Origin: Psilocybe cubensis
Lineage: Eukaryota
Direction of reading: 5' to 3'
Length of the DNA stretch: 64,000 nucleotides
Assembly: GCA_017499595.2 (NCBI GenBank)
Contig: CM039006.1
Coordinates: 372,001 to 436,000, forward strand
Under the pieces are notes generated by a model. That model had not been told where the DNA came from and searched no databases. It was given only the letters and a program-made list of their open reading frames with translations. This document shows positions 18,796-64,000 of this stretch, piece after piece. The position numbers and the translations under genes are program-made. The stretch's first letter is position 1. Each line of letters begins with the position of its first letter.

Positions 18796-19726
18796 GAAGG
18801 TAGCGCTGTTTTGCTTTAGGTGTTCAACGGTCCTAGTTTAAATCGCACTATCATAAACTGTACTTTGTATTAGAAACCGGTTAATTATCAGACACTTTTA
18901 ATCGCTTCATATTGTGGCATAGACAAACCTTCTTGGATGAAGAACTTAGACGCATTGCAAAGGATGGGATGAAGAGGCTGGAATGGGTGTTGTTTCGTTA
19001 CTGAATTCGTGCATGGCCCGAGCGTCAAGTTGATAATCACGTGAATACCTTGACATCTGACGGATCTTGATCAGGGGTAAAGCCGAGACGGGCGCTTGCG
19101 ATAATAGCGCTTAATCTAACCTCACGATTCCATGAACGAAGGTATACATATAACATGTAACGGGAGATGTCAACAATTTGGGATCTGGGAGTATTTTCAG
19201 ACTTCATTTCTATCCTGCTGTAGAATGTATTGTTGACAAGCATCTACCCAATATTTGCCAGAAAATTTGTGACGTCAGGAAGCAAACTTAGGCACCGAGT
19301 TCAGACTCGCTTACCGTGTATTGGATCTTGACAGAATCGCCTTCAATTGCCGACGCGTATTGCTCTGAAAATCTTCAATTCTCTATGGCATGAAAATCAT
19401 GTCCCTGTCTTTGTTATACATCTAAAATCCGTAGACGACAATCCTGCGTTAAGCATCTATATCCGACACATGGCGTAGAAACATATAATTAGCAGTAGGA
19501 TAAGCAACACATATCCTACCGCAGATTCATATCAACATTGATTATTGAATGAACTTTTTGCACCACCTTTGAGTCTTACTCTACGTACTACTACTGAGTG
19601 TAATACCCTGTATGATAAATTCTATGTATTTCCCCCCGTAATATTATAAACAAGTTCTATTGAGAAATTTATATTAGCTCCTGCATGTGTCATAATATTA
19701 TGTTTCAATCAGACATCTCCTCTTTG

Positions 19727-19747
19727 CCTGGACTCTTTAAGTCCAGG
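19727..19747 (-). other. Hairpin CCTGGACT-ctttA-AGTCCAGG, candidate Helitron 3' terminator
   Basis: Perfect 8-bp stem and 5-nt loop, about 50 nt past the RepHel stop and 14 nt before a CTRR (CTGA) followed by T. Confidence 0.4.
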
Positions 19748-19798
19748 TTTAGGGTGGTAGCATTTTTCTATAAAAGGAAATAGGTGGTCTCGTTCGGT

Positions 19799-22700
19799 CT
19801 AGATTGGTCTAGATTGTTCGACGTCGGACTTCGCTATGTTGTCCAGTCTGTTTAACTCGTTGCGCAGTTCTTCAGGTAACCGATTGTATATTTTATTCTC
19901 AGGGAACCATCGTAGAACTAGTAATCCAGATATGGATTTTACTCTGGAGAGCATTACATATGCACCTTGACCTCTTGCCGTTAATAAATCAACAATTACC
20001 CTATCAAGTGTGCGACCTTGTCCTTTATAGTCTGTGTACGCATACGCTGGTATTAGTGGGACTTGTTTCCGTGTAAAGCTGTCAAACAATTTGATATGCT
20101 TTTGGTATTTAACATCTATTGAAGTCGAAGAAGGGAAAATTGGAACAACATCTTTTTCTAGCCCGTCTACTTGTATTCCACAACCTTTGACGTGTACATA
20201 CACAGCTTTGCAGTATCGACGGTATTTCTCGTCCACTTCATATTTTATGTCTGTGACTATACCCTCAGTGCCATTGACTATTTTATCATCGAATGCAATG
20301 TTTTCTGTTATCATTACTTTCATTCCAATGAAAAGAGGTAGTTTTCCAAGGGCGTCGTTTGTTTTTGTTGAAGGTAGTCTCCATAATATCTGTTGGAACT
20401 CACCTGTAATCCTTTTTTTGTGTCTCTCATCTCGTGAATAGTATATATGTGGTGATATATTTGCTTTTGTTGAATGGTACTTGATTAGCTTGGCATTCAG
20501 GATGTCTCGTACGGCCTTGTTGCCTACAATGATAGGTGCATCTCTGAACAATGCTAGTGTTTTTGGATTAGAAGCCTGTTTCTGGATAAGTCTGTTATAT
20601 ATATAATGGTAATCTGACTGTTCATTGTCACTTTTAATATTGTTAATATTACTTCTGCAGAGGCCCAATCTTAGTCTATCAAGAAAAAGGGCATACTTTA
20701 TGTCTCTTGCGTGTCTTTCGTTTTTGACTAGTTGTATCACTGTTTTTACTTGTCTCCATAGAAATGCGCCATTTAGTTGTGATGGTCCTGACACGTTCCG
20801 AGCTTCTGCAAAAGACGGGTTCTTCACCAATTCATTTGCATATAATGGCTTTTGTAGAGGGGGTTTTAGTTGTGCGCAGTCGCCCATAAATATTACATTA
20901 ATTCCTCCGAATGGTTTATTGCTGTTAACGACGTCATCTCCTTTCCCTTGCCTAATTCTGATAGAGATTTCACTGAGGAATTTTGCGCTTATCATTGAGG
21001 TCTCGTCTATTATTAAAGTTTTTATGTATTTCCAAATTTGAATTAGTTTAAGTTTATTGGGTTTTGCTTGTGACTGATTTGCATGAGATACTATCAGTGA
21101 GTGTAGTGTTTGTCCTCCGATCAGCACTGCCGCTATTCCGGTCGGTGCTCCTAATAATAACTCATTCCTGCGATGCAAGCGCTCGAATAACATAATCAGA
21201 CATTTTATCAAATGGGATTTACCTGTACCGCCAACGCCTGCAATATGAATCAGCAACTGTTCCTTGTTGTCGGTTATGATATGGTTACCGATGATTCGGA
21301 ACGCCTTTAGCTGTTCTGGGTTATTTAAAAGTCCCATTTCTTCTGCGATGTTGTTCATGGTGTCAGTGTCTGTTATTGAATTGTAATTATGACTTAAATC
21401 ATACAAATCCTGGAGTATAGCTTGCTTGGCAATAGGTGCATAGTTCCCATTGCGATATCGTTTGGGTGGCGTAGTTATGTCGTCTGTGTCGGGTTCATGT
21501 AGCATTGCACGTTTTCTTTTTGATTTCATGATGGCGCGATGGCTTGCTAACAGATCATCCACTTCATGTGATGTTAGAGTTTGTTGGTTTACTGGAACTG
21601 ATTTTTGATATTCCGTGTCCACAGCAGTTTCCGTTGTATCCAGTGGGAGACACATGTCTAGAAATCTTGAAGTTTCCTCTCCTATGTTATCTATGGAGTC
21701 GTGTAAGTTTGTTGTAAAGTCTTCGTTGGGGTTTTCAATGCATTGGAAGGGATCTGGAGAGTATACATCGTTAGGGTTGAGGGTGTCTGTATTACCTTCC
21801 GTGTCTGTTAATATTATATCCTGTACTTCATCGGACACTACATCCTCGGATGTTTTTCCACGTCTGCGCTGCCTGTGTGCGTCGCGGGCCTCGCTACATT
21901 CTGTCAAAGCTTGCATGTTCTGTATGATGCGCGTGTGTTCTAGTTTCATTGATATCTCGTAGTTATGAAATGCGTCTGTCCATGTTTCTGATGGGGTCTT
22001 TAAATCTGATATATCCCTCCACGGTTTGAAGAGGAGTAACATGTCCCTTGCCCAGTCATCTTTTAGTTGATCAGACTTCAATGGATTCGGAATAGAAGGG
22101 CCTAGTATAATTGGTATACAACTTTTTCTTCTGATTGTCATATAATGGGTGAAATACTCAGGGTGCTCGTCGTTTAAGAATGATCCTGGACGTACTGCTG
22201 TTTCAATGTGTAACATTTCTTTGGTATACCGTTGTTTGATACCCCATGCTACAAAGTCATACAAACACAAATCTATGAATTTGTCGTTCGCTGGTCTTAA
22301 ACAATAGTCCAGTCGTTGGTTGGACGCCGTTATGTCTCTGTCACCCATATTTAACTCAACTGACTCTTCGTTTTCTTGTTCGTTGGTATTGCTTACGTCG
22401 TCTAATGTGCTGTTGTTGGGCGTCTGATTGGATTTAGTGTGATGAGACATGCAAAACCTTCTTATACTGTGCCATTTGAGTATAGCAAATTTGTGAGATG
22501 TGTAGTGGTCGCCTCCGCCTACTAGATAGCTCATTACTTGTGGTTGTGATATTTCCTGTCTGCCCATCATACTATTAACAGCTGTTATGATGGCACCCAC
22601 TGTTTGATTGTCTGATATTTCTGATTGATTTGCGGACATTTTGCTGTACGCTTTACTTACAGCATACGACAACGCGGCCATACCTGCATGAACTGGTAGA

Positions 22701-25660
22701 GATGCCTTTGTTATATAATCAGTAACATAGTACAAGAACGCTTTTGCTGCATCTCCTGACCCTACGAATTTAATGTCCATGTTGCACTGCAATAAGAATG
22801 ATACTATATCAGTGTGTTGCGCTAATCTTGGATGGTGTCTGCGGAGTAGTATCTCTTTTGTTATTTCGTCTAATGTAGTCTTTTCCAAGGTCTGCCCATT
22901 TATACCCATTCTGCAATTATTGTCTGATTTGGATTGACCTCGTTCAAGGTATTTCCAGCACGTTGCTTGGTGCTCGTGCCATGCGTACTGATGTAAGATT
23001 CGCTCCAGGAAGAAGTCGAACTCGAGCCAAAATTGGTTTATATCGGTATAATTTTGTGGGGAAGGTGATTGTATTACACCTGGATGAGGATCACCTGTTT
23101 CAGTAGATAGTATTCGTCGGGGGTAATCGTTAGTCTGTTGTTCGGATCCTACTGAGTTTGGAAATTCACATTGAATTATAGATTCGATCCACATGAACAC
23201 TCTTGTTTGATAATGTATTGATCGGGTCATTTCATCGCGTAGTTTCTGGGGAGATAAGTGCCCGTGCAACCAAATCAGCATGTGGCAATGTAATGTTCCT
23301 TTACCTTGTGCCTCGACAGTACCGTAGTACGCTGTACATTTGCCGTATAAACCATTTTCCTCGCGCCCGTATCGTAATATGACGTTAATGAAGTTGTTTA
23401 TCATTAGGTCAAAAAAACGTGCACATCCTGAAGGGTTCCGTGCTGCAAAGAGTGATCTTCTCCATTTCGTCCAGTCCTCTCCTCGTTCGATACTTTCCAA
23501 TGAAATATCCTCACCCGCTAACAGACGTACGATAGGGTTGTCCACGTCAGACGGGTTGATAGTGATGAATAGTGTTGGTGTTCCTTTATTATTAATCAAT
23601 GCCCTGATTTGGTTACGTAGAGTTAGTTTGTAGCCATCGCTCCCGGGTACGTGTTTTGATACCAGTCTGATCGAAGACAGTAGTCTAAAAGCTTCTTTTT
23701 CTTTTGTTTCTGTTGGTTTGTAATACGGATTTTTCTCACATTCTTTGGTTAAGTGACTTAACATGTCTAAATCGATATTTAACAGTTCGTTAGCTATTTT
23801 CTTGTGTGACGATTGGGATACCGAGAAACGTAGACTCTGGGACACTAGTGCCTTCCGACATATGTTATAGAAAATAAACGCGAATTCTGGGTCTTTCGCA
23901 AACGGGCTGTCGTCTACTAAAAGAAGATGTTTGAGTTGTTCCTCCATGCTTATTTTAATCTTTCGTCCGGGATGGTAAAACCCTCCGATACCCCAAGGGT
24001 CCAGATGGGGGAATAACCATGTCAAGATCGATGGATTTTGAAAGTCAGGTACCATACTAGATCCTGTACCAGAAGCCAGGAATGGTTTCCCAGTGAGACA
24101 TCTCTCCAAAGCAGTTGATTTCATAGTCAGGAATGCCTGTGGTGAGTTGTCTCCAGATGTATATCCTACATTTTCCATCAGTAATTCATTGTATAATTCG
24201 TCCTTTGAATTTTCATCCACATTTCGACATGTATAATCTGCGACGGCTGAGCTGATGGCGTCGTTATCGGTCATAGCGCCTATATGTACGGCGTGTGGTA
24301 TACCCTCGTCTTTGTCGTTGTCAAACAAAAGTCTCATATTCTCTTCGCTGTACTCGGTGCTCGCAGAGTATTCTGGATTTTCGGTTAATAGAAAGTGTAT
24401 TATTGTCTTTACCCTCGATCTTCGGACTAAGGTAGGTTTATATCTGTGAATGGTCTTACGGTTAGGTAGATCTTTACCGATGAATATAGCACACATTGTG
24501 TCCCTTATCGTGTCAGACGCAGGTGGTATAACATTGTTCATGCGTATCACGTCTAGCGGTGATACTAGAACGTTTCCTCTTATACCTTTCCTAGCTCGAC
24601 TCAACGTATTTTCGTTGTCGTCTTTGTCTTCTGTTTGTGTGGTGTGGTTCAATCTGCACGTGATTACACTGGACCGTGCTCGCGAACATAACATCCTGTC
24701 GAAGATAGTTGAATGTTCTATCGCCGTCTTCACGGTTTCTGGTAAACTTTCAATTCCATAATACATCCAGTTACACAAAGCAAATTTAGGCATAGTGAAG
24801 GCCGCTAGTGCTTTGTCACATTTTGGACAGAGACATAGCTTGCCAATACGATCACGGTATTCCATGCCTTTATAATGCAGTATGGCCTTTCTGTAAATCT
24901 TGATATCATAAGTCTTAGGTAAAATTGAATCTGGCAAGTGTGGATTTTGTAGTAGATTCAGCTTGGTATTGTCTGGGTTTACCCATATACAATCGCGCTT
25001 GAAAAACCTCAAAGCGCATGCCGCGCATACTACATTGGACAGTCTGTCCGTAGACATTTCTTGTTTCCATTCCCGTATAATTTTTAATTTTTCATCTTTC
25101 CCGATAGGTTTAAGATGATCTTCGTCGATGGGGACCGCTTTAACTCGATTGGGTTGCTGTGATTCTGTAATCGTATCCGCGCAGTCTATACCAGGATTGT
25201 CTTGTGGTGGGTTGTTCAAATTTTCTTTGGCAACAGTTCGTCTTTCAAAATCGAAATTGCCACACCGTTCTTCGAAAATACTGAATATATGTTGACGTGG
25301 TCTTGCCATGCATTTGAAAACATATATCAAGTTACTGCATTTGCTACTGCATTGGTGTTCAAATATCTTAGCGAATAGTTTGGGTTTAGTTAAACGGGAA
25401 AATTGTATGCCATGGGAATCGGCTATGGCTTTCATGTCATTCATAGTAAAATATCTGAACCAGAACATCAGTACAGAGATACTGACAGTGAATACGAGAT
25501 TTGTAGTGTCATTTATGTGTTTTATAGCGTCATCATGATAAAGCCATATTGTGGTGAACTTGTAATATTCGTTGAAACGTAACACTTTAAGCTTTTCTAC
25601 ATATGGACGGCTATATTCGGGTTTGTACCTGTAGATATCGATATCTGAAATTTCGTCCAA
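19799..25660 (-). CDS. Helitron Rep/helicase transposase (N-terminal Cys-rich DUF6570-like region + HUH Rep + PIF1-family SF1B helicase); true start uncertain
   Basis: 1953-codon stop-free ORF. Rep motif 1 PTLFITINP, HUH motif 2 YYGTVEAQGKGTLHCHMLIW, motif 3 YVTDYITK. Helicase GVGGTGKS, IIDETSMIS, PFGGINVIFMGDCAQLKPP, PAYAYTDYKGQGRTL. Upstream LCPKCDKAL..PKFALCN. Confidence 0.95.
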   Translation of the reverse strand: MDEISDIDIYRYKPEYSRPYVEKLKVLRFNEYYKFTTIWLYHDDAIKHINDTTNLVFTVSISVLMFWFRYFTMNDMKAIADSHGIQFSRLTKPKLFAKIFEHQCSSKCSNLIYVFKCMARPRQHIFSIFEERCGNFDFERRTVAKENLNNPPQDNPGIDCADTITESQQPNRVKAVPIDEDHLKPIGKDEKLKIIREWKQEMSTDRLSNVVCAACALRFFKRDCIWVNPDNTKLNLLQNPHLPDSILPKTYDIKIYRKAILHYKGMEYRDRIGKLCLCPKCDKALAAFTMPKFALCNWMYYGIESLPETVKTAIEHSTIFDRMLCSRARSSVITCRLNHTTQTEDKDDNENTLSRARKGIRGNVLVSPLDVIRMNNVIPPASDTIRDTMCAIFIGKDLPNRKTIHRYKPTLVRRSRVKTIIHFLLTENPEYSASTEYSEENMRLLFDNDKDEGIPHAVHIGAMTDNDAISSAVADYTCRNVDENSKDELYNELLMENVGYTSGDNSPQAFLTMKSTALERCLTGKPFLASGTGSSMVPDFQNPSILTWLFPHLDPWGIGGFYHPGRKIKISMEEQLKHLLLVDDSPFAKDPEFAFIFYNICRKALVSQSLRFSVSQSSHKKIANELLNIDLDMLSHLTKECEKNPYYKPTETKEKEAFRLLSSIRLVSKHVPGSDGYKLTLRNQIRALINNKGTPTLFITINPSDVDNPIVRLLAGEDISLESIERGEDWTKWRRSLFAARNPSGCARFFDLMINNFINVILRYGREENGLYGKCTAYYGTVEAQGKGTLHCHMLIWLHGHLSPQKLRDEMTRSIHYQTRVFMWIESIIQCEFPNSVGSEQQTNDYPRRILSTETGDPHPGVIQSPSPQNYTDINQFWLEFDFFLERILHQYAWHEHQATCWKYLERGQSKSDNNCRMGINGQTLEKTTLDEITKEILLRRHHPRLAQHTDIVSFLLQCNMDIKFVGSGDAAKAFLYYVTDYITKASLPVHAGMAALSYAVSKAYSKMSANQSEISDNQTVGAIITAVNSMMGRQEISQPQVMSYLVGGGDHYTSHKFAILKWHSIRRFCMSHHTKSNQTPNNSTLDDVSNTNEQENEESVELNMGDRDITASNQRLDYCLRPANDKFIDLCLYDFVAWGIKQRYTKEMLHIETAVRPGSFLNDEHPEYFTHYMTIRRKSCIPIILGPSIPNPLKSDQLKDDWARDMLLLFKPWRDISDLKTPSETWTDAFHNYEISMKLEHTRIIQNMQALTECSEARDAHRQRRRGKTSEDVVSDEVQDIILTDTEGNTDTLNPNDVYSPDPFQCIENPNEDFTTNLHDSIDNIGEETSRFLDMCLPLDTTETAVDTEYQKSVPVNQQTLTSHEVDDLLASHRAIMKSKRKRAMLHEPDTDDITTPPKRYRNGNYAPIAKQAILQDLYDLSHNYNSITDTDTMNNIAEEMGLLNNPEQLKAFRIIGNHIITDNKEQLLIHIAGVGGTGKSHLIKCLIMLFERLHRRNELLLGAPTGIAAVLIGGQTLHSLIVSHANQSQAKPNKLKLIQIWKYIKTLIIDETSMISAKFLSEISIRIRQGKGDDVVNSNKPFGGINVIFMGDCAQLKPPLQKPLYANELVKNPSFAEARNVSGPSQLNGAFLWRQVKTVIQLVKNERHARDIKYALFLDRLRLGLCRSNINNIKSDNEQSDYHYIYNRLIQKQASNPKTLALFRDAPIIVGNKAVRDILNAKLIKYHSTKANISPHIYYSRDERHKKRITGEFQQILWRLPSTKTNDALGKLPLFIGMKVMITENIAFDDKIVNGTEGIVTDIKYEVDEKYRRYCKAVYVHVKGCGIQVDGLEKDVVPIFPSSTSIDVKYQKHIKLFDSFTRKQVPLIPAYAYTDYKGQGRTLDRVIVDLLTARGQGAYVMLSRVKSISGLLVLRWFPENKIYNRLPEELRNELNRLDNIAKSDVEQSRPI

Positions 25661-26073
25661 CGCGTGAAATCGGAATTAATCCGTGTCAATTTAAATTCAT
25701 TTAATATCAAGTTTCAAGTTTAACCAGATTTGAATTGGATACAAGGTGACGAATCGAATTTTTCATCAGCGATAATTCCCATAGGTAAAACGATTACTTA
25801 CCGCGTTGCAGAGTCGACGCTTTCAACGACGATACCGTGTTTTGTGTGTTAATATAAGTGGTCTGCGTTGTGTAATTTGACAGATAGTTCTACTATAAGT
25901 TTTTGTAAGCGCTCACCATTCTTCAATATATCTGGAAATGGGTCTGTCGGGGCGTTGGTGTTGATTTTATCTGTTCTGGTCTTTTGTCTTATTTAAATAG
26001 GGTGTACTCGTTTATATAGAGTTTTGTCTGTGTATGGTATCTGGTACTGTTACTGAAATTCGTTCAATGATTC

Positions 26074-26474
26074 TTTAATTGGGTCCAGTCACGAACTGTT
26101 CATGTAACACCAAGTAGGCGACACTTTGTCCGCCGTGTGTTGTTATTTTGTTTGGTTGTCAGATCATATGAGTAATAGCAACTATCACGCTAACTAGTCA
26201 GCACTTTTACCCATCGTGGGAGGAAGTGTACGTGTTTATGTTTACGTGATGACGTATGCAAGTATTACTGTCACTTAGCTTGTGTTTAATTGGGTCCAGT
26301 CACGAACTGCTCACGTAACACCAAGTAAGCAACACTTTGTCCGCCGTGTGTTGTTATTTTGTTTGGTTGTCAGATCATATGAGTAATAGCAACTATCACG
26401 CTAACTAGCCAGCACTTTTACCCATCGTGGGAGGAAGTGTACGTGCTTATGTTTACGTGATGATGTATGCAAGT
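26074..26474. repeat. Tandem direct duplication, period 211 bp (about 190-bp copies 26074-26263 and 26285-26474)
   Basis: Both copies start tttaattgggtccagtcacgaactg and end gtatgcaagt, with a few substitutions. Confidence 0.92.
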
Positions 26475-26624
26475 CTTAGCTCGTGTTGTAAGTGACGGTG
26501 TATTGCATTCTGAGTCTCTTTATGTGTAAACCGCGACGTAGATTTAAGGTCAGGTCGTCAGACAGAGTCAGTGTGCGCAAGTTCACAGCTCCATTGTTAT
26601 GGCGAATCTTGGTGAGCGCCTCAA

Positions 26625-27912
26625 ATGTCGCGGTTTGTTGTGTTTGTAATGTTATGATAGAGATTCATAGGTTCTCTCCCGCTCGAATTCTTATTCTTGA
26701 TGCGCAGGAGCGACTACTCGCTAAGGATTCGCGGCGTTTTGTTCTCTTTCCCATTCGGTACATTAAGGTGTTGTTGTTAATGTAACATTTTTTCCTTCGG
26801 GACTAACTTTGTTTGAATTGCCTTGGAACTGCCCTGTTCAGATTTGGAAAGCATACTTGCATGCTGTGACGACGTTATGGGAAGCACGTTGTGCTGGTTT
26901 ATCACGTGACTCTAAGGATTGGACTGAGTGTCTGTCATTCCAACAACGATGCGGTGGCATCTTCTTTTTCAAACTTTCTATTGCTTCTCATGGGATACAT
27001 AAGCGACTATTGGATATAATCTCCAAAGAAATTACAGTCCCAGAAGCACATTGCTATTTCAGTTTCCAGTCGGTCAAGTGGGTGTGAATTTTTTATACAT
27101 GGATTTATCTCAGGATTCGATTAACAACGTTCTAACAGTGAAAACGTCCACCAGGAGGCGATGGCCAAGATTACGCACGGTCTCACAGGAATTCGAATGG
27201 ACGATTGCGTCGATGAATGGGAACTCTTGCGTCCAAAGGAAAAATTTATGAATATTTGGACGAGATCTTCCGTGTATCCTTTCTCTGAGAGGTTGCTCGT
27301 TTTTATATTCATTCAAGGAATATTTGGTATTTCTCTGTCCCGGCTTCTACAATGGTTTTCTGGCAAAGATTACCTCCCAACTATGGTATCTACTTACACC
27401 CGGATCTTCAATGACAGGGAATGTCATGTAGACTTTGTCTCGCTGCTTTTTTATCATTTGAAAAGGCGTCCGTTAACCAGTTTTGTCAACGAATTCGTCG
27501 GGACCATTGTTAAAATCGAAAAAAAATTCGGCAGTGGTATGATAATGGTTTGTTTTTTAATGGTCCGTGTCTGATTAGCATGCTGAATATTATAGATTTG
27601 CTGGACCTTTCCGAGATAGACATTCCATTAGACGACCTGAATCGGTACGTGGAATGCAAAGCAGACGCCCTTCTGGTGTCTCTTGGGTACAAGCAATTGT
27701 ACGGTACATGTAACAAAGTATGACATTGTTCGTCTGAATTTGGGATTCAGTTGACGAGTTTTTAGGGGATCGATGATCTTATCCCTATCGTCCCTGGGGA
27801 ACTGAAAGCTGGTTTTTTTCTCGAGGAGATGGCGCTGGCGTATATCCCCCCAACTATGGAAGACGCTATTTTAGACGGACAGTTCGGTAATCATCTCCTT
27901 GACCTTTCTTGA
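26625..27912 (+). CDS. Diverged ribonucleotide reductase small subunit (R2/Rnr2 family) paralogue, predicted catalytically inactive; start uncertain (26625 or 26654)
   Basis: Spliced reading ERLLAKDSRRFVLFPIRYIK / IWKAY..DSKDW..ITVPEAHCYFSFQ / ENVHQE..FSERLLVFIFIQGIF..NDRECHVDF..KIEKKF / YVECKADALLVSLGY / KAGFF..stop 27910-27912 aligns by eye along the length of eukaryotic R2; no internal stops with GT-AG introns. Confidence 0.85.
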
Positions 27913-28213
27913 ACATGTTATATGGTTTATTCATACTTTTTGTTGATGTAATATCTATGTACCCGCTACTGAAGGGTAAATCCTAGACACCGTGGAATAA
28001 TACAACTTCCTGTTGAAATTAAACCCTTGTCATAGAGTTCTGGATGGGAAGGTGAATACTGTTTCATTCCAATTATCCGTCTGTGGTGATTTTGCGCTCT
28101 TTAGACTGTATGCCCAGTATCAATCTCGGAAAACTCCAAGCGCGTGGCAATCTATCAGTTCATATTACTGTGACTATCCACCCAACCAATGTCCACTTAT
28201 TATGCTGTGACTA

Positions 28214-28375
28214 ATGTACTCCCACCCCGCGCCCGCGCAGGCGCAGGCGGCACAGCCCAAAGCACCTGAAAACGAGCTCTTCTCGTTCGACTTCCACGCA
28301 CCGTCTCTGGTGCAGAACACGGCTGTGATGGAGCAGCCGAAGAAAGACGTGAAGCAGAATATTTTGTCGTTTACA
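28214..28375 (+). pseudogene. Short fragment resembling the C-terminal region of an Agaricales ArfGAP (Age2-like)
   Basis: ELFSFDFHAP..QPKKDVKQNILS motif, isolated from any GAP domain. Family call from recall only. Confidence 0.45.
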
Positions 28376-28549
28376 TTAATCAGCGTTTGTACGCTGCCTC
28401 TGTTTTCTTGTGATTATGATAGACATTAAAATTTCATGTAGACTGTAGGTTGTACAGACTTTCTCATGCTTGGATTAGGGTATGTACCTCAATGGGTATC
28501 TTGGTATCGCTGTGCTTTTCTATACCGCTTCACTGGCGGACTCGTGTTA

Positions 28550-30370: not shown

Positions 30371-30384
30371 GTAATAACATGGAG

Positions 30385-30546
30385 ATTTGTTTGAAGGGCG
30401 GTGGTGTTATACCAACGTCTGTCTGTCCGGAATGCGGTGAAGCTAATAGAGGAGTGTTTCACATGTTGCTTGACACAAATACTGTAGATTCACGTTTCGA
30501 AGGAATCCTCAGGGACATGGGCGTCACTGATCGAGTTTTCTACTGA
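30385..30546 (+). pseudogene. Fragment resembling an RZ-type zinc finger C-terminus (ZNFX1/RNF213-like fungal proteins)
   Basis: GGVIPTSVCPECGEANRGVFHMLLDTNTVDSRFE resembles GGAM..CPECG..IGG..H.LL..N..FE. Confidence 0.4.
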
Positions 30547-31181: not shown

Positions 31182-31232
31182 GTTTTTTTTTTTTTTTTTT
31201 TAGTTGTATTCTAATCCTCAATACCTGATTAT

Positions 31233-31282: not shown

Positions 31283-31284
<2 letters not shown>

Positions 31285-53990: not shown

Positions 53991-55250
53991 TGATTCAATT
54001 TTTTTTACGCTGAACCATATCTATTTTTAGATTAACCCCTTTTTATAGCCAGGCTTGGTAATACGAAATAGGTAATCTGTTCGCCTCGCCAAGTCACCCC
54101 ACATGGCTGCTTGGCGATTGGCATAGGCTGCTCGCCCCTTTTGTACCACGTCATTAGCAGAGGCATCACCAGCCATTGCCGCTACTGCACTGTTCATCCA
54201 CTATTTCTCCTTTCGTAGGAAATATCTCATCGTTCAGTCCATTTCGTACCCAAGAAGCATAGCCTCTTCTCGCCATCTGTGGAACTGTGCTCTGGCACGT
54301 AGCCAATGGACCCGTTTGACTTGGTGTGACGTTCCGGTCTGTTTCCCACACCCCGATAATCCTCTTTTTTATCTTATCTTTAATTTTCGTTTCTGTGGAC
54401 TTCACCTTCGCTCCGTCCACCCGATACACGCACCCCGTTAGCTCATTTTCTTCATTCTATGTTCCTAATCCTTCATTCTATTCCCCTTGAAACTGACTTA
54501 TACTCCACCTTCATGTGTTTCCCAATTAACCCTCTTTTATCTTTTTCTTCGTCTACTTCTTTTGGACACCTTATCCTTTACAGTATAAATACAGCTATGT
54601 AGTAGCTACAGAAAAGCATCGAATACAGAGTACTTTAACCTGTCTATTCGACCTCTAAGCTTCCTTTCGAAACCTTTTCCGTGTGCCGCTACGGAACTGC
54701 TATTACTCTCCGAGCCACAGTTGTCACTAGCGTCACACTTGGAACAAGGTAAGTAAAAATATCACTTATATTAAGGGATGGATTACGAACATTCTATCAG
54801 TGTTTCTGGATCTGTATCCTCCAGGTTAAAAGGTCCATTATCAGGATCGCCAATTCTTATTTCGCCGTTCTCCGCCACAATGTTGGGCCCATGCCTAGAA
54901 ACCCTGAAAGACTTCTCCGTATTTGCGGCGAGTAGTGGCATGGAGAACGGACATGTTCTGGCGTGTGAGCCTTTGCCGAATCTCAGCGAAATGAATTGCA
55001 GGTCACCTCAGGTTGGAGAGGGTGATGCAATTCAGGCGAGCATTGCTATGGCAAACGTCGGTCGCGGGACTTGGCGAGGGTGATGCGATGCAGGCGAGCA
55101 TGCCTTTGACGAATGTTAACACCTATGACGACGCAACATGTAAGGAGTGCCTGGATGAGCAGTGTCCTAACGTCATTCTGCGTTTATTTATATCTCCGAG
55201 TCCGATGTATTGCCATGCCTGAAAAAATGCAGACCGTAGGCATTGCGTAC

Positions 55251-57450
55251 TAGGGCGATGGTGGTGTAGTAAAGAGGGAACACAACTCCAACAGACAAGT
55301 ACAAATAACCAGCGCGACCAGATAGGAAGCGGGAGGTCCAGCACCAAACAAGGAAGTAAAGGCAGGATCCCAGGATGTTCCATGGCAGTTCAGCCAGAAT
55401 TTGGGCAATGATGTGGGCGGTCCAGCTGTACATTCCGCTTGGGTGCTTCCTGACCTCGTAGATAGTACGGGTAGCGACGAAGGGAACTTGCAACATGTTC
55501 ACCAACGGTTGACTGTAGAAATATTGGTCAGTTTCGTGAACTCAACAAAGTAATTGAAACCAACTTCAAGACGAGAAGCATGTAAACAGTCTAGTAAAAG
55601 GAGGTTATGAGATCGAAGATCAAATCCTAAAACGAACAAGACTTACACATATACAATTCTGAACGTTTTGTATACTGTCCTGGTTCTTGAGAAAGACAGA
55701 CCAATGAAGAAGCCACCAGCAACATTGAGGATGAGCTTGGCGATGCGGTAATGGTCAGCAGCTCCTTGTTTAAATGACAAGTTCGATGACCTGGTTGCGC
55801 CATGGGGTGGGGTATTCAATCCTGAGATCAGTTTCAACAGCAGGTTGACTTCGTCCAATTGTATGGATCTCCTGGATTTCCTGCTCAGTCCTGACTGCCT
55901 CGGGGAGCGTTTCCAAACTTCGTGCCAGTTGATGCTGCTGAAGGCAGTCGCTCCGGCACCAATAACGTCCAACATATATTCGGCACTAGAAATTAGACGG
56001 AGATAGATCAGGATAAGGCATCAGTGTAACGGTTAAAAATAACGCACGGATTTTCTTCAGGAAGACATGGGCGAGCACCGTTGGAGTCGAAGTAGTGCAG
56101 CAAAGTTTCAGCATTGTGTCCAAGGTCACCGAAGTAGACTGTTTAGCCACCCTTCTCCTCAACAAAAGGAAGCGATCGAAGACCTGGTAAATTTTGGTCA
56201 GTCAAGGTACAATAAAATTGTGTCAAACGACGTACATGGAACAATTCAGCGAAAGGTTTTTTGACAAAAAAAAAAATCATTAAGATGGCAAAGAGGTACA
56301 TCACCGCAGAAGCTCACTTGATGAATCCTAATGAATAAGACAGATCAGTATATAAATAATTGATAATAGCTGCTTACCTACGTGCATAGGATAGCCTGGC
56401 TTTGTTCGGCCAAGCTTCGCAAGAAGGCAACAATGTTCCAGGCACTCTGAGAGTCAAGACCAGATGTGGGCTCGTCAAGGAAAAGCAAATTCTGGGCTAT
56501 CATAGAATAATTAAGATGCATGTCGACACGGGAGCTTCATAAACACGCATAGCGTGTACGAGAACCGCAAGCTCTAAATTTCACATTTGCTGTCAAAACT
56601 CCGGTGCGTGATCACCATCACAGACCCATACTGCCTCGGAGCTATCCATTGGCGTTCCTCCATTGCCTTCTTCAGCGCCGTGAATTAGCAGGACATTGGC
56701 ATATTTTGAGTGTTTTTCTCCTCTACAACAGTTTTGACGGGCCAAAATAACCAAATCTACGCGTATAGGGTCCTACGTAGTCAGGTTAAACCATTTTTTG
56801 ACCAAATTATGTATGGTCCTGATATCATTGACGCAAACGTCTGGAGATCTGAACATGTAGTCAAGTCGACGCTTCACCGAGAGTGAGTAATTCTGTGTTA
56901 AACCAACTGCCGTCAGTGTTAGACAATGTATTGTCTATATACTAGCTTGAATAACATACATTTTTTTGCATCTATATACAATAATGTGAATGAGACTCCA
57001 ACTTAAATTATCCACCGGGGCGGTGTCAAGTCAACTCGTCGAGCTGTAAACGACGAAATTCAGCTTCATAAAACTCTGGCAAGTCAGAAATGCGTCCGTT
57101 TCAACGATTTAGCAATGCAATGGTGCTCTAGGGAGTCTTTATATTCCTAGAAGCTGGGATTTTGCAATTTATTCCACAGATTTCAAAGGTAGAAACGACT
57201 TAACAAGGTCTCCATACTGGGAAACCGATAGCTCGGAGGCAGTATGAATTTGTGATGGTGATTACGCACCTGAGTTCTGACAAGCGAATTCGAGATTTAG
57301 AGCTTGCGGTTCTCGAACACCGTAATAGCACCTTCACCGCGAGTTCGGCACCGATGGTGGTTCGTTTCCTTAGTTCCACGCCAAGGGATCCGACAATAGC
57401 GTTCCTTTCATTCCAAAGGCCATACAAGTGAAGGCATTGATCGACACTTT
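55251..57450 (-). pseudogene. PDR/SNQ2-type ABCG transporter fragment (NBD2 + part of TMD2), disrupted
   Basis: [77 protein letters not shown]. Frameshifts near 56140 and 55890; no N-terminal half. Confidence 0.85.
56552..57322. mobile_element. Non-autonomous TIR element (TA TSD, about 95-bp TIRs), 771 bp, inside an intron of the ABC fragment
   Basis: TA|gcgtgtacgagaaccgcaagctctaaa..gagctatc (56552-56646) is the imperfect reverse complement of gatagctc..ttagagcttgcggttctcgaacaccg|TA (57227-57322). Excision restores a ~60-nt GT-AG intron. Confidence 0.85.
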
Positions 57451-58519
57451 ATAATGCAATTTAACAATTGAAGTGAGTAGAGTAAAAAGGGACTTGACCG
57501 AAAGATAAAGCGTTTAACTCAAATTGAATTATTTCAAAGTTCTAGTCATAACATCCTTAATTAAGAGTGGGTAGCCTTTGCTTTACAGCAAGGCCATAGG
57601 TCCTGGGAACGCATCAAACCGAACATGTCTGCTGATGTAAGTGGGTGATTTTCGAGGCTCCTCGTGACTTGAGTAATTCACGGAATGTCTAGCTATTTTT
57701 CTGTAGTCATGCCATCCTACGACTATAAAATGTAAATCAGTAAACCATTGCTATGGAACGAGGGGACTTTTACATACCATTTGACCCACTTATCAAAACT
57801 TATAGCCGGACATAGATAGCTTCATTTACGAACATATATTATGTATACACGGATTAGTACACTGAACAGTCTCGGAGAACTCTTTGATTGGTGTCATGTT
57901 AGATTAATATTCAACACTTATGCAATATCTATCCACTCTACGACTTTACCCGATTGTTAATGGTATTTCTATGTTCGTCCACAGGATAACCACAGCAACA
58001 TTTAGAACTCTGTAATTAGAAGGAGTCTAATCCTCACAACATATACACATTACATTATTGAGAACTAATTAGTCATATGAAACACGACGCAAATATTCTA
58101 TGCGAATGACAACAGAATCTATTGTAAATGACGGACTAATATAAAACAGAGTACTTTAACGCCAACCAACTTGAAAGCAACACCGCTCGTTTCCACTTGT
58201 GACAGCTAAACAATGTTCACCGCAATCGAAGAAACTTTCGCAAAAGATCAAAGGAACACCAATAACTTGATTACGTTTGAAACGTATCCATTCCCTTCAA
58301 AGCTAATAGAAATTGCTTAGTAAGTTCGAGCTTTACAAATTACGGATTGACTGAAAACTTCGAAATCGTCTAGCCCTCTAGATACAAGAGGCTTTATAGT
58401 ACCGCCTACCTTATTAAAGGCTTACTCTAAGAGCCATGAAAAATTTCTAATGCCTAAATGCTTCCATGGAATGGAAACGAGTATCATCGTCTTTAAAAAG
58501 TCAATGCTGATCGAGTATA

Positions 58520-58646
58520 CCTCCTCAAAAAACTCCTACTACTAGTGTCATCTTAATTTCGCCAGTGCCGAGAGGTTATAGGTTGATTATTGGTCCAGGT
58601 GGTCAAGAGTACTTGGTGCCTTGCCATCTGGTTGAAGACATAAATC

Positions 58647-58686
<40 letters not shown>

Positions 58687-58907
58687 TTTTTTGAATCCTA
58701 TGAACATAAAAAAAGGATGGGTTTAGAAAGAACAATGGCATCGGTACTATATGCTCATCTTGTCCTGTGTCTATTGTACTGACTTTCGCGTTTGAAAAGG
58801 AAGAAAACACATATGGAGACCGCCGCATCCCATAAAGGAGGTACATTTACTTCTCCCACCAAACCTTCTGTAAGCATCCGCTTTTCTATACAATTTTTAA
58901 AATTGGA
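58520..58907 (+). repeat. Copy B of the dispersed inverted duplication (partner 44232-44594)
   Basis: Reverse complement of copy A with an expanded poly-T tract; reads PVPRGYRLIIGPGGQEYLVPCHLVEDIN on +. Confidence 0.88.
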
Positions 58908-59355: not shown

Positions 59356-60964
59356 ATGTCAGACCCTGATATGTGTAGAAAAGGTATCCCTGTCGATACC
59401 GATAAAGGATACAGCGCGTCGACCTTTCACCGCATTGGTCAGTTCCAACGTCTTCTGCATCCTGTTATAAATGGAATCAGTTGTAGAGGTGTAGTATTTC
59501 TATTGAATGAACATTTAACATTCTGCTAATTTTTATTTTATTTATGTATCAGCCTCTATGATTCCTTTTTTAAATTCGTTCATATCTTCAAATATATTTG
59601 ATACACTCAACTGTGTTGATTACCAGTGCGGCTTGCGTGATAGACAATCCGTTTGTTCGTATTCAAATGGTATGTATAGTACAACGCTCATCAAAGCGTA
59701 TAATTCGAACTTGTTTGTAGAATCTAAAGCTAGTGGCAAGTCCTTTCTTGCGATAGGCACTTGCCAGGGATCCATCAAGGTCGTTGACGCACGACGGAGG
59801 TGTTTATGGGAACGTGGTGCGTTTAATTCTCTCTGGTCACAGCACTTCTATGTCGGTTTTTATTTTTCGTATTCCTTCCCTCGCGTAGAACCTAGGGGAC
59901 GGCAAGTTATACGTCATCGGTCCTACATAAGCGATTTGAAATGGAAGAGGGATGATACATCGTTATTGGTTGGTACGTCTACTCATTCAAGGTACGTGGG
60001 AGACGATCATCCCGGTGCATTTGTCGTAAACGTCGAAGATCGAGTTATAACGCATTGGTTACACGGACATATCGAGCCGGTTAAATGTGTCATGTGGCAT
60101 CCTATGAGCGAGTCGCTTGTGTACACCGGAGGTAGAGATGGTGCTATATCCCTTTGGGATTTACGGATGAATCCATCAGTTCGTTTATCTTCGGGGTCGA
60201 CTGGTCTTAGGTCTGTCGCTACTATCGTTCATGCCCATCAGGTTGTAGGATCTTCTCCGGAACCCACCATTACGGGGCTCGTGTTGCAAGACACTGCCAC
60301 TTATAATGTAATAAGTAGTTGTTCCGCGAATGGGTGAGTGTTTTATCAGACGATAGAAAAGTGTGTCTCATTGTCTTTTGGTAGTTTTCTTCGATTATGG
60401 GATCTCAGATCGACTAATACCTACCTCTCGTGCTCTAGTTTGGACCCGACCGTCTACAACCATCGCCAGTCTAGGGGTATTGTGTCGCTGGTATCGGGGG
60501 TCAAGGAATCGGACGGTACTATATTCGGACTTGGCACCGATGCAAGGATATATGTGTATTGTGTGTTGGATCTAAACGTCTACAGTAGCCAAAACCCATG
60601 CGACAGTCTCTGGGGGAGTCCATCATTTTATGTGAAATCGTCACTCTCACCGTGTGGTCGATGGTTGGCATACGGAGGAGGGCCTCACAACGGGGATGCT
60701 TTCATTTTCAGTGTTGCACGCGACACTCGATTAGATGTCGGACCCATCCACGCTGTGAGGTTGAGGGGGGGTTCGTCTAGCTCGTGTGGAGTGGACTGGT
60801 CCAGCGATTCATTGGCTGTCTGTGCGGAAGCTGGAAGGGTCCGTATATGGCGGTCCGACCCCGGGAAGCGGAGAGAATGTGAGATACAACCTGATATCAA
60901 CAAAAATAAATGGAGTTGGGCTACGACTATTTCACAAAAACATGGTTATTATAATCGGATATAG
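59356..60964 (+). CDS. WD40 protein, diverged Cdt2/DTL-like (CRL4 substrate receptor), multi-exon
   Basis: ASMIPFLNSFISSN..CSYS, LAIGTCQGSIKVVD, H..ISDLKW, LHGHIEPVKCVMW..TGGRDGAISLWDLR, SSCSANG-LRLWDLR, SFYVKSSLSPCGRWLA, RVRIWR. SFYVK..SP is characteristic of Cdt2/DTL. Confidence 0.72.
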
Positions 60965-62393: not shown

Positions 62394-62764
62394 AAAATGT
62401 ATAATACTAAATTAGTAAGTTTCTCTTGATATTGGTTATGCACTAACTCAAATGGAATAGAACAAGTATATATATATATATAACTAATGTTAGCAGTCAA
62501 TTCTATTATATGTACGTTCTATTTATATGATTGATTTTTATCAAATCTATCAAATATACGGTCCAACTTCTACGGAATTAGCATGTTTTTGAAACAAGTA
62601 TACAAAAGTTGTTTCATCATCATTTAGAATCTAACTGCATTTAAATTGTTTTTTTGTGGTCTAGCGGCCAACATACCTATCTAGCCGGTGTCTAGCATTT
62701 TAATTTCCGTAACCCTGCATAATGTATACTAATTTGGCAATAGTGTGATGTAACCTAAAGCAAT

Positions 62765-62882
62765 ATATTGTATTAATACAATGACAGTGGCGTTGATAGC
62801 ACATATTGTATTAATACAATGATAGTGGCGTTGATAACACAGTATATTGTATTAATGCAATGGCAGTGGCGTTGATAGTACA
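62765..62882. repeat. Tandem repeat, 38-41-bp unit, 3 copies, each containing the palindrome ATTGTATTAATACAAT (third copy has one mismatch)
   Basis: atattgtattaatacaatga(c/t)agtggcgttgata at 62765, 62803 and 62844. Confidence 0.88.
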
Positions 62883-63256
62883 GGACTATAGTAATGGAAG
62901 CAATTAAAGAAAACTAAAACAGTATTAGTAACATAGCAACAGTGATATTGATGATGATAGATTTGATAATAGTATCAATACTATAGTGATATATTAATAG
63001 AAGTATTCAAATGACATCGGCATATTACTAATTGCACTAATTGTATAGCAACAAATGCATTGAAAATTAGTCATTTTATTAAATGGTGAAAAAATGACAC
63101 CATTTTATTAAACAGTGAGAAAATGGCGCCATTTTGTTATATTATATTAGTAATCTACTCTTGAGCTTGTCCTATTTAAAGCGTAAATTGCAATAACAAA
63201 GTTTTATTGCATCACATTCAAATCGTGTTTGTCGTTTATTAGTCCTTCTTGTCATT

Positions 63257-64000
63257 ATGGACTTTCTCAATTTGAATCAATATTCGGAACTTCTTCCGCC
63301 ATTTGATATAATATCAAGTAAGCAATTATATTATTTATATCTAAACATATTATACTTAAATCTAATTCATTTAGAATCTTTTGGCTATCTATTAAAAGAC
63401 ATCAATGCCGAAATCGAAACTGCCTTCATTATGAAATATGTTCCAATCAACCAACGTTGGACTGAGCTTGACACTTTAGGTGTCTGGAACAACCAGATCA
63501 AATGGAGGCGATATCAGCATAAATGTCTTATTGACCCATGGCATTATACTTTACGCAATTTTAGCGTATGTATTACATGTCATGCTAAAGAAGCAATATT
63601 TTCTGTATTTCCTTATGGATCTGATAGATTTCCTGGATACGGCACAATTGTCCAGGAATTTGTAGAATTTGGTTATAAAGAATATGCTATATATGCTTTA
63701 GTAAGTCATTTTACACTATATACTAATATTTTTATATTTATTTTTGCTATTTTAGGATGCTAATTCAGAGCTGATTGAAGGTTATTGTATTGAACCAATT
63801 ACCAACGACATTTACTGGCCAACAAACGACGTATTTGTTGTTTCTGTTAGCTCTATTAGTTTTGTGGCAGCATATTACTTGCTAGAACCAATTCTAAGCA
63901 GCAAGTATGTGGTATATGTTGCACTTGTATCCCGTTTCATCGACAAAACAGACTGGAAGAAATTTTTGGAGTTTTTCAATATCAAGGATTCCGAGGATAT
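63257..64000 (+). CDS. Hypothetical AT-rich protein, runs off window end
   Basis: 168-codon ORF, then intron (gtaagt about 63701 to tttag about 63755) into an open frame continuing to 64000. No family recognised. Confidence 0.4.

Follow-up and report, generated by a model that had tools for sequence, protein, structure and literature searches.

Gene Content of the Locus

The stretch of DNA analysed here (the window; 64,000 nucleotides) encodes proteins that match those of Psilocybe cubensis (names from NCBI). Its first 18.8 kb carry host-type genes with the Pfam families NACHT/NPHP3_N, MFS_1, p450, and adh_short, the last with E-values of 8.5e-16 and 4.7e-20 (ORFs 17520-17876 and 17988-18308, respectively), which bears out the limit of conserved host genes at 18795 placed by a first-pass annotation of the locus. 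Depth over 17520-18795 gives the single-copy baseline, ~37 in read set X11 and ~42 in X12. The features of the window considered below are as follows.

17520-18795, plus strand: host short-chain dehydrogenase gene, flank, outside the element (adh_short in two ORFs)
19709-19749, minus strand: candidate Helitron 3′ end (7-bp-stem hairpin at 19749-19727, then CTGA at 19712-19709, next nucleotide T)
19799-25468, minus strand: RepHel gene, open frame of 1958 aa (Pfam; first Met codons at 25468, 25444, and 25435)
26074-26478, unstranded: tandem duplication (194 nt at 96% identity, with a period of 211 nt) in the spacer that separates the starts of the divergent RepHel and R2-like genes
26648-27912, plus strand: R2-like gene in four coding blocks, with the small-chain fold of ribonucleotide reductase but degenerate catalytic positions (Pfam, tblastn)
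28214-28881, plus strand: orphan 204-aa gene (P0007; tblastn blocks 28214-28396 and 28438-28878)
29210-30351, unstranded: nested multi-copy MITE-like element with terminal inverted repeats (TIRs), internal 10-21-nt repeats, and a 9-bp target-site duplication on both sides
30680-31463, unstranded: segment of 765-782 nt with a long poly-T, skipped by some reads and by one 10%-diverged X6 contig
39894-39993, unstranded: assembly gap of 100 N (read directly from the sequence)
41656-44173, plus strand: CstF64/Rna15-like gene with RRM, hinge, and putative C-terminal helices (Pfam, tblastn)
44232-44597, unstranded: left copy of an inverted repeat, 95% identical to 58517-58907
55191-55541, minus strand: isolated ABC transporter gene fragment (ABC2_membrane, 2.2e-09)
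58517-58907, unstranded: right copy of the inverted repeat, paired with 44232-44597
59543-60964, plus strand: diverged Cdt2/DTL-like WD40 gene (identity to basidiomycete proteins)

The window was compared with the raw-read depth of X11 and X12 and with the contigs of X6. Copy counts and gene adjacency within P. cubensis come from the public NCBI annotation and reflect accession order, not DNA, while Helitron relatives are 75 metagenome loci containing RepHel relatives (802,533 nt in total). Pfam scans covered 276 ORFs of at least 50 aa between 25.7 and 64 kb, the count of Ribonuc_red_sm matches being drawn from 138 ORFs.

The RepHel Gene and the Ends of the Element

The RepHel gene is intact, as first described: a stop-free ORF of 1958 aa spans 19799-25675 on the minus strand and holds DUF6570 (1e-24), Helitron_like_N (3e-36), and PIF1 (1.2e-22) in one frame. 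A Rep domain (HUH, two-tyrosine) is thus followed by an SF1/PIF1-type helicase in a single ORF, the arrangement by which a Helitron is recognized, and both the two-tyrosine motif and the Walker A motif are invariant in an alignment of 12 sequences.

Downstream of this gene, the hairpin and CTGA make a start of the element at 19709, as proposed earlier, a plausible CTRR-type 3′ end, although the nearest break in independent data lies 17 nt away. Contig 1 of X6 equals window 17572-19725 with 0 differences, departs from it at 19725/19726, and continues for 1910 nt in unlike sequence; X6 contig 2, which carries RepHel, begins at 19784, and raw-read depth rises in the bin starting at 19501. The terminus is plausibly placed at either 19709 or 19726/7. 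The 5′ end, already missing from the first-pass annotation, was again not found: the window holds no above-chance match to the 5′ ends of relatives, no inverted stretch of at least 11 nt matching the 3′ end, and no asymmetric terminal inverted repeat. Because the 5′ end is not located, the element could far exceed 9 kb.

The R2-Like Gene and the Orphan Gene

Head-to-head with RepHel, across a 1.2-kb spacer with a tandem duplication at which the X6 contigs break (26150/26416), lies the R2-like gene. Its presence is upheld by Ribonuc_red_sm matches in 3 of 138 ORFs and by the NCBI model P0002 (340 aa; Ribonuc_red_sm 1.1e-42, 146.7 bits against a cut-off of 33.6), which maps to the window in four tblastn blocks (26657-26770, 26836-27078, 27128-27544, and 27595-27909). 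The protein aligns to yeast Rnr2 (1smq, 2.8e-38) and matches the yeast Rnr4 structure (1jk0 chain B, 2e-34). Where the six iron ligands are expected to be Asp, Glu, His, Glu, Glu, and His, the window's protein reads His, Glu, His, Gln, Arg, and His; the alignment therefore shows the loss of three of the six metal ligands (Asp to His, Glu to Gln, Glu to Arg) together with the radical tyrosine (Tyr to Met). Since three ligands and the radical tyrosine are not kept, the protein has the fold of R2 without being a working R2. By eye, its C-terminal tail is unlike the R1-binding tail.

In the annotation of P. cubensis the orphan gene that follows is always a neighbour of the R2-like gene, its accession coming directly after the R2-like one at three loci and being fused with it in a fourth model. 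It has no Pfam family, no Atlas lead, and no homologue in the 75 related loci.

R2 as a Companion of Related Helitrons

Among the 15 loci of the closer clade (RepHel identity of at least 40%, with no less than 2 kb of DNA available upstream), 11 have an R2 gene upstream of and divergent from RepHel, the four without it being L003, L006, L008, and L023. Because most loci come from few samples of one project, these represent about eight independent lineages rather than eleven. An R2 gene lies upstream in none of the 24 loci of the clade with RepHel identity of 35% or less. All 10 R2 ORFs tested score above the Pfam cut-off. One family (L017, L009, and L016) defines a 7.8-kb element with sharp ends, R2 inside, and unrelated flanks, its homology running from ~0.3 kb beyond the R2 gene to ~25 nt past the RepHel stop.

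In these relatives R2 is under purifying selection, like RepHel: Ka/Ks is 0.128 for R2 (314 codons) versus 0.137 for RepHel, with off-frame values of 1.4-2.2. All seven catalytic positions are kept in L017/L031 and in L027. Ka/Ks for degenerate R2 genes is 0.24 and 0.47, the latter belonging to L038, where the gene is partly decayed with one stop. The earlier proposal of selected cargo instead of passive capture holds for R2, because R2 accompanies this Helitron clade in other organisms too, where it is conserved and under selection; for the Rna15-like gene, the first-pass interpretation is borne out by half.

Copies Within P. cubensis

In the annotated genome, pieces of RepHel are found as KAH9474293, 9477363, 9479910, 9484783, 9476975, and 9475320, the R2-like gene as KAH9474294, 9477364, 9479911, and 9484785, and the orphan gene as KAH9474295, 9477365, 9479912, and 9476973. 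The six RepHel-derived accession groups lie on at least five contigs by annotation order, not DNA. The first-pass annotation had proposed asking whether its genes recur together, and RepHel, R2-like gene, and orphan do so at five loci, in this order, with consecutive accession numbers and near-identical proteins, on four contigs of 3.08, 3.13, 3.52, and 4.33 Mb and on a fifth. Repeated copies are identical or 2-3 residues apart, and five RepHel gene models are 99.6-100% identical over their overlaps; recent transposition may account for them. One gene model continues beyond the final portion of RepHel into a gene that the window does not contain, and that locus therefore has a different flank.

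In X11 and X12, RepHel and the R2-like gene are covered at only ~1.1-1.5 times the depth of the flank, reaching 1.9 times at 19.5-21.5 kb, which counts against the reading preferred below. Were the copy number in these strains that of the annotated genome, a depth of 5-6 times would be expected. Strain differences are the one explanation given for this mismatch.

The Remaining 35 kb

The CstF64/Rna15-like gene reported earlier is indeed present, with RRM_1 (9.9e-14) and CSTF2_hinge (1.4e-19), and the RRM of human CstF-64 (1p1t) is its best solved match (5.9e-21). The C-terminal domain has no Pfam match, and its resemblance is by eye only. The NCBI model P0003 maps in tblastn blocks spanning 41776-44170; placing the first exon at 41656 is our own reading, the model itself starting at 41776. 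Six accessions of this gene exist in P. cubensis, five of them no more than 30 accession numbers away from a copy of RepHel (1, 3, 8, 21, and 30), a proximity that speaks against the reading preferred below insofar as a 9-kb element alone leaves it unexplained. As recurring cargo, the gene is multi-copy and mostly near RepHel, but its spacing varies and it once lies on the opposite side of RepHel.

The Cdt2-like gene likewise exists as a WD40 gene (59543-60922), with 28-31% identity to three basidiomycete proteins over alignments of 461-504 positions. Its link to DTL is indirect, running through these relatives at 28-38% identity, for one of which human DTL/Cdt2 is the best solved match (4.9e-22); the window's own ORFs match only generic WD40 families. 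An in-frame stop at 60335-60337 falls in an apparent intron, and ~100 N-terminal residues of the relatives lack a counterpart in the window gene.

A nested MITE, as described earlier, is real: it lies at 29210-30351, with TIRs, a 9-bp target duplication, and a depth of 150-345 versus ~40 (4-9 times) with many different flanks; its loose ends at 29209/29210 and 30351 collect ~270-400 reads per run with low-agreement flanks. Joints from 30680/30697 to 31463, around a poly-T at 31168-31297, occur in X11, X12, and X6. The inverted repeat pair encloses 14.7 kb of orphan ORFs, with no target-site duplication visible at its outer edges. Of the broken fragments of four genes listed earlier, one was verified (ABC2_membrane, 55191-55541), whereas the other Pfam matches among the 276 ORFs are weak or of low complexity.

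Alternative Explanations

The locus is a Helitron with cargo. The best overall explanation, to which we assign a probability of about 0.65, is an autonomous Helitron spanning at least 19709-28881 with a conserved R2 accessory gene. The window would hold one such copy, with its 3′ end at ~19709-19727 and reaching at least 28881. Its three genes would be the minus-strand RepHel, the R2-like gene arranged head-to-head with RepHel, and the orphan gene after that. The remaining 35 kb would then be transposon-rich DNA with nested elements of its own, another recently amplified gene (CstF64/Rna15-like) with a tendency to lie near Helitron copies, and a diverged Cdt2-like gene.

That the whole 44-kb stretch is a single giant island is unproven, and membership of the CstF64-like and Cdt2-like genes in the same mobile unit as RepHel is not shown. 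One giant Helitron, running from ~19.7 kb through the R2-like, orphan, and CstF64-like genes, for a length of at least 24.5 kb, or even as far as the Cdt2-like gene, for at least 41 kb, with a module of S-phase/dNTP and mRNA 3′-end regulators as cargo, is unlikely. It would be consistent with the order RepHel, R2-like, orphan, CstF64-like in accession runs 77363-66, 76975-76967 (reversed), and 84783-84804, with a depth at 28.9-37.5 kb that shows no step down relative to RepHel, and with an X6 contig 1 that after 19725 matches nothing in the window up to 37499. Nor does the 3′ terminal hairpin sequence recur to the right of RepHel, so that, if the family moves the CstF64-like gene, this gene lies inside the same element. 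Fission yeast Cdt2 drives degradation of the ribonucleotide reductase inhibitor Spd1, a connection that would tie R2 and Cdt2 functionally. Yet annotated genes between orphan and CstF64-like gene number 0, 5, or 18, the latter gene lies 30 numbers off on the other side at one locus and is missing at another, and such variable spacing is difficult to reconcile with 99-100% identity between copies. For parts of 30.4-32.2 kb the reads contain only paralogues of 90-95% identity, which predate the Helitron copies, and linkage is broken by the 100-N assembly gap, itself confirmed at 39894-39993. The claim that 19709-64000 forms one element is not supported, given the missing 5′ end, the absence of both the CstF64/Rna15-like and the Cdt2-like gene from the 75 related loci, and the 7.8-kb length of the related family with mapped ends.

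Segmental or ectopic duplication would instead have copied transposon-rich blocks (for example, near chromosome ends or centromeres) by recombination, carrying along an old Helitron and unrelated neighbour genes without recent Helitron transposition. Near-identical, co-localised copies of RepHel, R2-like, orphan, and CstF64-like genes at variable spacing suit such a process, as does an apparent difference in copy number between the annotated genome and X11 and X12. We nevertheless consider it improbable: one RepHel model passes straight into a gene that the window lacks, which puts the limit of the shared block near the 3′ end of the Helitron; the X6 assembly breaks where the terminus is predicted; related elements are sharply bounded, with flanks that do not match; and RepHel is intact with all motifs present. 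Still less credible, indeed very improbable, is an ordinary gene-poor region in which a solitary Helitron sits beside single-copy host paralogues of R2, Rna15, and Cdt2. The depth of ~1-1.5 times in X11 and X12 and the host-like introns and open frames of all three genes would fit, but four R2-like and six CstF64-like accessions beside RepHel pieces in one annotated genome contradict single-copy status for these two genes, and R2 genes accompany RepHel in other organisms.

Comparison With Known Systems

Rnr4 of yeast is a chromosomal single-copy gene whose product has the R2 fold, lacks part of the iron ligands, and pairs with a catalytic R2. The window's protein shares the fold and the lost ligands, although this degenerate R2 rides on a transposon. 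Large DNA viruses and phages carry catalytic ribonucleotide reductase subunits, presumably to secure dNTPs; here, too, a replicating parasite has such a subunit, but the parasite is a cellular transposon of the cut-and-copy kind, and the window copy cannot be catalytic. Starships are giant cargo elements of Pezizomycotina moved by a tyrosine-recombinase "captain"; a giant Helitron with cargo from its host would resemble these very large fungal elements, though the host here is a basidiomycete. Starships are also cited in PMC13535494. A Starship-type element was rejected, with no captain among the 276 ORFs of at least 50 aa (25.7-64 kb). RPA-like Helitron genes represent a host replication protein that elements acquired and then retained in an accessory role. 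They resemble the R2 case in being accessory host replication genes, with single-stranded DNA binding there versus dNTP synthesis here; no RPA-like gene was present among the 276 ORFs scanned. Such genes are mentioned for plant and animal Helitrons in the FoHeli paper (PMC5148889).

The HELPO1 elements of Pleurotus ostreatus measure 1.5-13.7 kb. They combine a single RepHel ORF with a subterminal hairpin and 3′ ends of the CTRR type, and between one and four "captured" genes, intact and expressed, are found only inside elements; these lie downstream of RepHel, are mostly species-specific, and have no known domains or viral/retroelement ones (Castanera et al., 2014, PMC4289320). The window likewise has an agaricomycete Helitron with a RepHel ORF, a candidate hairpin and CTRR-type end, and gene cargo, but its main companion, the recognisable host enzyme subunit R2, lies upstream on the other strand and is common to diverged Helitron lineages. 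FoHeli of Fusarium oxysporum (Helitron2-type) is 5-6 kb long with non-canonical ends, and one subgroup has an extra Helitron-only ORF without a known domain, upstream of and opposite to the transposase gene (PMC5148889). The likeness lies in the upstream, opposite-strand extra gene and in the TTTT that flanks L017/L009 on the 5′ side, as in Helitron2; unlike FoHeli, the window has no asymmetric terminal inverted repeat, and its 3′ end (hairpin then CTGA) looks more Helitron1-like.

Implications for Helitron Biology

Under the preferred reading of a Helitron with a conserved accessory gene, R2 would be an old companion of one agaricomycete Helitron clade, kept in the same place and orientation and not a passively captured fragment, its catalytic residues intact in some lineages and degenerate in others, including that of the window. 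Where R2 is intact, the element may supply its own ribonucleotide reductase small subunit and thereby dNTPs for rolling-circle replication, as large DNA viruses do; where it is degenerate, the protein may act as an Rnr4-like non-catalytic partner or as a decoy. A bolder proposal, which we regard as quite unlikely, is a Helitron of 25-45 kb, now transposing in P. cubensis and with strain-dependent copy number, that takes in the R2-like, orphan, and CstF64-like genes and perhaps the Cdt2-like gene and carries a co-selected module for dNTP supply, S-phase proteolysis, and mRNA 3′-end formation taken from its host. If true, the module of such a giant element would bend the host cell cycle toward the element's own rolling-circle replication.

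Gene Content of the Window

Ordinary fungal genes, carrying NACHT/NPHP3_N, MFS_1, p450 and adh_short domains, are found across 1-18.8 kb of the window. Two tandem paralogues in this part (2305-2788 and 3783-4269; 72% DNA identity) are glutathione-transferase-like by reading of their translations, and the one ORF of the pair that was submitted to Pfam, 3770-4315, has no match at 0.001. The Helitron Rep-helicase gene (RepHel) encodes DUF6570, Helitron_like_N and PIF1 domains, and its two-tyrosine motif and Walker A motif do not vary in an alignment that includes 11 relatives. The features on which the analysis turns are as follows, P. cubensis gene models having been mapped back onto the window for the orphan gene and, exon by exon, for the R2-like and CstF64-like genes.

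Principal features of the window
19799-25675, minus strand: RepHel open frame, 1958 aa
26657-27909, divergent from RepHel: R2-like gene (ribonucleotide reductase small subunit)
28214-28878, adjoining the R2-like gene: orphan gene, 204-aa "hypothetical protein"
39894-39993: run of 100 N
41776-44170: CstF64-like (Rna15-like) gene
59543-60922: WD40 (Cdt2-like) gene

A Pfam scan of all stop-free ORFs of at least 50 aa between 25.7 and 64 kb (n = 276, in two batches) matched Ribonuc_red_sm (three ORFs), CSTF2_hinge (two), RRM_1 (one), WD40 propeller families and ABC2_membrane (one); the remaining matches were weak or of low complexity. The R2-like and CstF64-like ORFs each matched one protein cluster bearing the NCBI name Psilocybe cubensis. 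The word-based protein search that gave these clusters, and P. cubensis clusters only, returned one of 130 candidates for the former and one of 138 for the latter, and it says little on canonical paralogues, being blind to relatives without common 5-residue words. The WD40 protein shares 28-38% identity with proteins of Lentinula, Fibroporia and Sphaerobolus, and the best solved match of the Fibroporia relative is human DTL/Cdt2. For the orphan protein, no lead came from the ESM Atlas. Exact look-up found no match to 13 Met-to-stop ORFs, which comprised orphan ORFs, the Cdt2-like gene and RepHel read from three starts. The first-pass annotation had read three genes of this region as R2, Rna15 and Cdt2 paralogues, an assignment that holds on the Pfam scan, the mapped models and the WD40 comparison; of the broken fragments of four unrelated genes that it also described, the ABC2_membrane piece was verified, and the other three found no verification among the 276 ORFs. 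The RRM halves of the CstF64-like gene are split by an intron of ∼550 nt (41980-42534); this exceeds the usual length in mushroom genes, and the intron may contain an insertion.

Degeneration of the R2-Like Protein

The R2-like protein aligns with yeast Rnr2 (1smq) at 2.8e-38 and retains one ligand Glu and both His, with the ligand Asp replaced by His, two ligand Glu by Gln and Arg, and the radical Tyr by Met. Judged by these residues, the protein is predicted to be incapable of working as an R2. Searches with canonical R2 signature motifs found nothing because the gene of the window is degenerate, and it was then recovered by Pfam on single ORFs. Organisms with class Ia reductases require a catalytic R2, and we infer that the non-catalytic gene of the window must therefore be an additional copy.

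R2 Genes in the Helitrons of Relatives

A HMMER search with the last 1200 RepHel residues as query yielded 796 representatives at ≤1e-30, and an alignment-based scan of metagenome contigs gave 75 loci with RepHel relatives (802,533 nt). Using the proteins of the window, tblastn identified R2 genes in 8 of the 75 loci, and zero matches to the orphan, CstF64-like and Cdt2-like genes or to seven other window ORFs. With a profile made from the R2 ORFs the count rose to 12 loci, and all 10 of the ORFs tested scored above the Pfam cut-off. Among the 15 closer loci, which combine RepHel identity of ≥40% with no less than 2 kb of sequence ahead of the estimated RepHel start, 11 share the arrangement of the window, with R2 upstream and on the opposite strand (the others being L003, L006, L008 and L023), or 8 of 12 when near-identical pairs are merged, in a sample in which many loci derive from few samples of a single project and may stand for one or two fungal genomes. 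R2 was upstream in none of the 24 loci of the clade with ≤35% RepHel identity. A canonical-looking R2 lies in locus L027 (11311-12221), 2.8 kb downstream and on the same strand as a distant RepHel relative (∼28% identity); it may be a separate capture or an adjoining host gene.

The extent of a related element can be read in one family of loci. L009 and L016 share 82-85% identity with L017 from L017:5770 to ∼25 nt past the RepHel stop and are unrelated to it outside these limits, delimiting an element of 7.8 kb that holds the R2 gene and RepHel. The 5' flank ends in TTTT in both copies, which agrees with the account of Helitron2 in PMC5148889. Homology of 78% between loci L049 (1-6000) and L038 (561-7011) extends at least 6 kb past the R2-like gene and spans two ORFs that are F-box-like by translation reading; either additional 5' cargo in this lineage or orthology of the two loci may account for this.

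All seven catalytic positions are kept in L017/L031 and L027 and are incomplete in L001/L018, L011/L021, L049, L038, L004 and the window. Between L017 and L009, Ka/Ks is 0.128 for R2 (314 codons, Ks 0.59) and 0.137 for RepHel, as against 1.4-2.2 in the two off-frame readings. For degenerate R2 genes, Ka/Ks is 0.24 between L001 and L018 (with only 22 differences) and 0.47 between L049 and L038, where the first third of the L038 gene has decayed and RepHel of the same pair gives 0.116. Taken together, these ratios point to selection on the R2 gene where it is catalytic and to weaker constraint where it is not.

Recurrence in the Annotated P. cubensis Genome

Models of the window genes in the annotated P. 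cubensis genome
RepHel-derived: KAH9474293, 9475320, 9476975, 9477363, 9479910, 9484783
R2-like: KAH9474294, 9477364, 9479911, 9484785 (the last fused with the orphan gene)
Orphan gene: KAH9474295, 9476973, 9477365, 9479912
CstF64-like: KAH9475319, 9475397, 9476967, 9477366, 9479880, 9484804

All of these models belong to one annotation, since RefSeq numbers run parallel to the KAH accessions. The order RepHel, R2-like, orphan gene of the window recurs in strictly consecutive numbers at three loci and within two numbers at two more, on at least five contigs, four of which measure 3.08, 3.13, 3.52 and 4.33 Mb, and the proteins are identical across loci or differ by 2-3 residues. One RepHel model runs on into 417 residues without a match in the window, so that this copy has a different flank. 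The joint recurrence that the first-pass annotation had proposed as a check is thus found for RepHel and the R2-like gene, with accession order rather than DNA as its basis.

The CstF64-like gene is also amplified, with five of its six copies no more than 30 accession numbers from a RepHel copy (1, 3, 8, 21 and 30) and the sixth 77 away. Its order matches that of the window in three cases; in one the gene is found at the other side of RepHel. Co-location of the two genes by chance is unlikely, but copies of a single unit that are 99-100% identical should not vary by 0, 5 and 18 intervening genes.

Read Depth and Helitron Ends

Two raw-read runs (X11, X12) and two contig sets (X6, X7) were mapped on 17500-37499 at 90% likeness, depth being summed over both strands. 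Depth is ∼37 (X11) and ∼42 (X12) in the dehydrogenase flank, and 58-81 at 19.5-21.5 kb. It is 41-58 in the remainder of RepHel and across the R2-like and orphan genes, rises to 150-345 at 28.8-30.8 kb, and falls back to 37-63 in the greater part of 31.5-37.5 kb, reaching ∼80-106 at 34.8-36.2 kb. At sites 21380 and 28384 a second base occurs in 25-33% of otherwise identical reads. From the mapped depth, the X11 and X12 strains therefore have about 1-1.5 copies, far below the annotated genome; strain differences are the only explanation that we offer for this gap, and they would imply recent movement.

In X6, a contig of 4064 nt is identical to the window over 17572-19725, and its following 1910 nt resemble nothing up to 37499; RepHel lies on a separate contig of 6367 nt (19784-26150) at 1.8 times the depth of the first. 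The break resembles an empty site, or a different one, where the 3' end of the Helitron is predicted. X7, in which the species has a small share, held a few contigs of it of 78-200 nt and was uninformative. The end sequences of relatives, an inverted copy of the Helitron 3' end, and repeats around the CstF64-like gene were sought in the window with chance-level matches only.

The sharp depth edge at 29210 was considered as a Helitron end and rejected: a TIR element (MITE) occupies 29210-30351 and is bounded by a 9-bp target duplication of its own, and the DNA on either side was therefore formerly continuous. Reads further reveal paralogues of 90-95% identity at 30.4-32.2 kb. The stretch at 34842-36175, at twice the read depth, contains a direct repeat pair with 41-nt cores at 35259 and 35916; in X7 part of it reaches a contig depth of 450 (joint 35145-35275), which is very high.

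The Remainder of the Island

Inverted copies at 44232-44597 and 58517-58907, 95% identical, enclose 14.7 kb of orphan ORFs and the ABC-transporter fragment. The pair resembles the termini of a 14.7-kb transposon but has no visible target-site duplication. The large ORFs at 44.9-47.3 and 51.4-53.8 kb match no Pfam family. Within this block, an 18-nt tandem array of 13 copies (46833-47170) encodes a Glu/Asn/Gly-rich repeat in a 414-aa orphan ORF, which gave a spurious Collagen match, and five copies of a 183-nt period (51907-52694) occur in a minus-strand orphan ORF of 549 aa, forming a peptide module of ∼61 aa of no known family. The host-gene part (13952-14060) and the orphan-ORF block (47280-47388) share a 109-nt inverted match, 94% identical, which is probably another small dispersed repeat.

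Implications for Helitron Biology

Helitrons take up host DNA, mainly as decaying fragments, and to our knowledge the one host-derived accessory gene widely cited as retained by them is RPA-like. The comparison of loci indicates that an R2 gene is kept across one clade of mushroom Helitrons in a fixed position, is constrained by purifying selection on a par with that on the transposase, and appears to be non-catalytic in several lineages. What the first-pass annotation had observed was largely right, as was its core interpretation of a Helitron with intact, selected dNTP-supply cargo; because R2 is a clade-wide Helitron gene, the evidence for selected cargo is stronger than it had been from the sequence of the window alone. 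The size of 44 kb, with the Cdt2-like gene included, is unsupported.

The HELPO1 Helitrons of Pleurotus measure 1.5-13.7 kb (PMC4289320); their captured genes, one to four in number, lie downstream of RepHel, and known domains in them are absent or viral. PMC5148889 describes a Fusarium Helitron subgroup with an upstream ORF of unknown kind on the opposite strand. A literature search at the level of listings and of passages from one paper found no work that joins Helitrons to an RNR small subunit.

R2 in Helitrons would represent a second replication-supply gene domesticated by a transposon, in parallel with large DNA viruses, and through it a connection of transposon replication to the control of dNTPs becomes open to experiment. 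The near identity of copies at several loci and the low depth seen in other strains suggest that the element is active within the species. P. cubensis is widely cultivated and sequenced, so that transposition could be tracked directly if the element is active.
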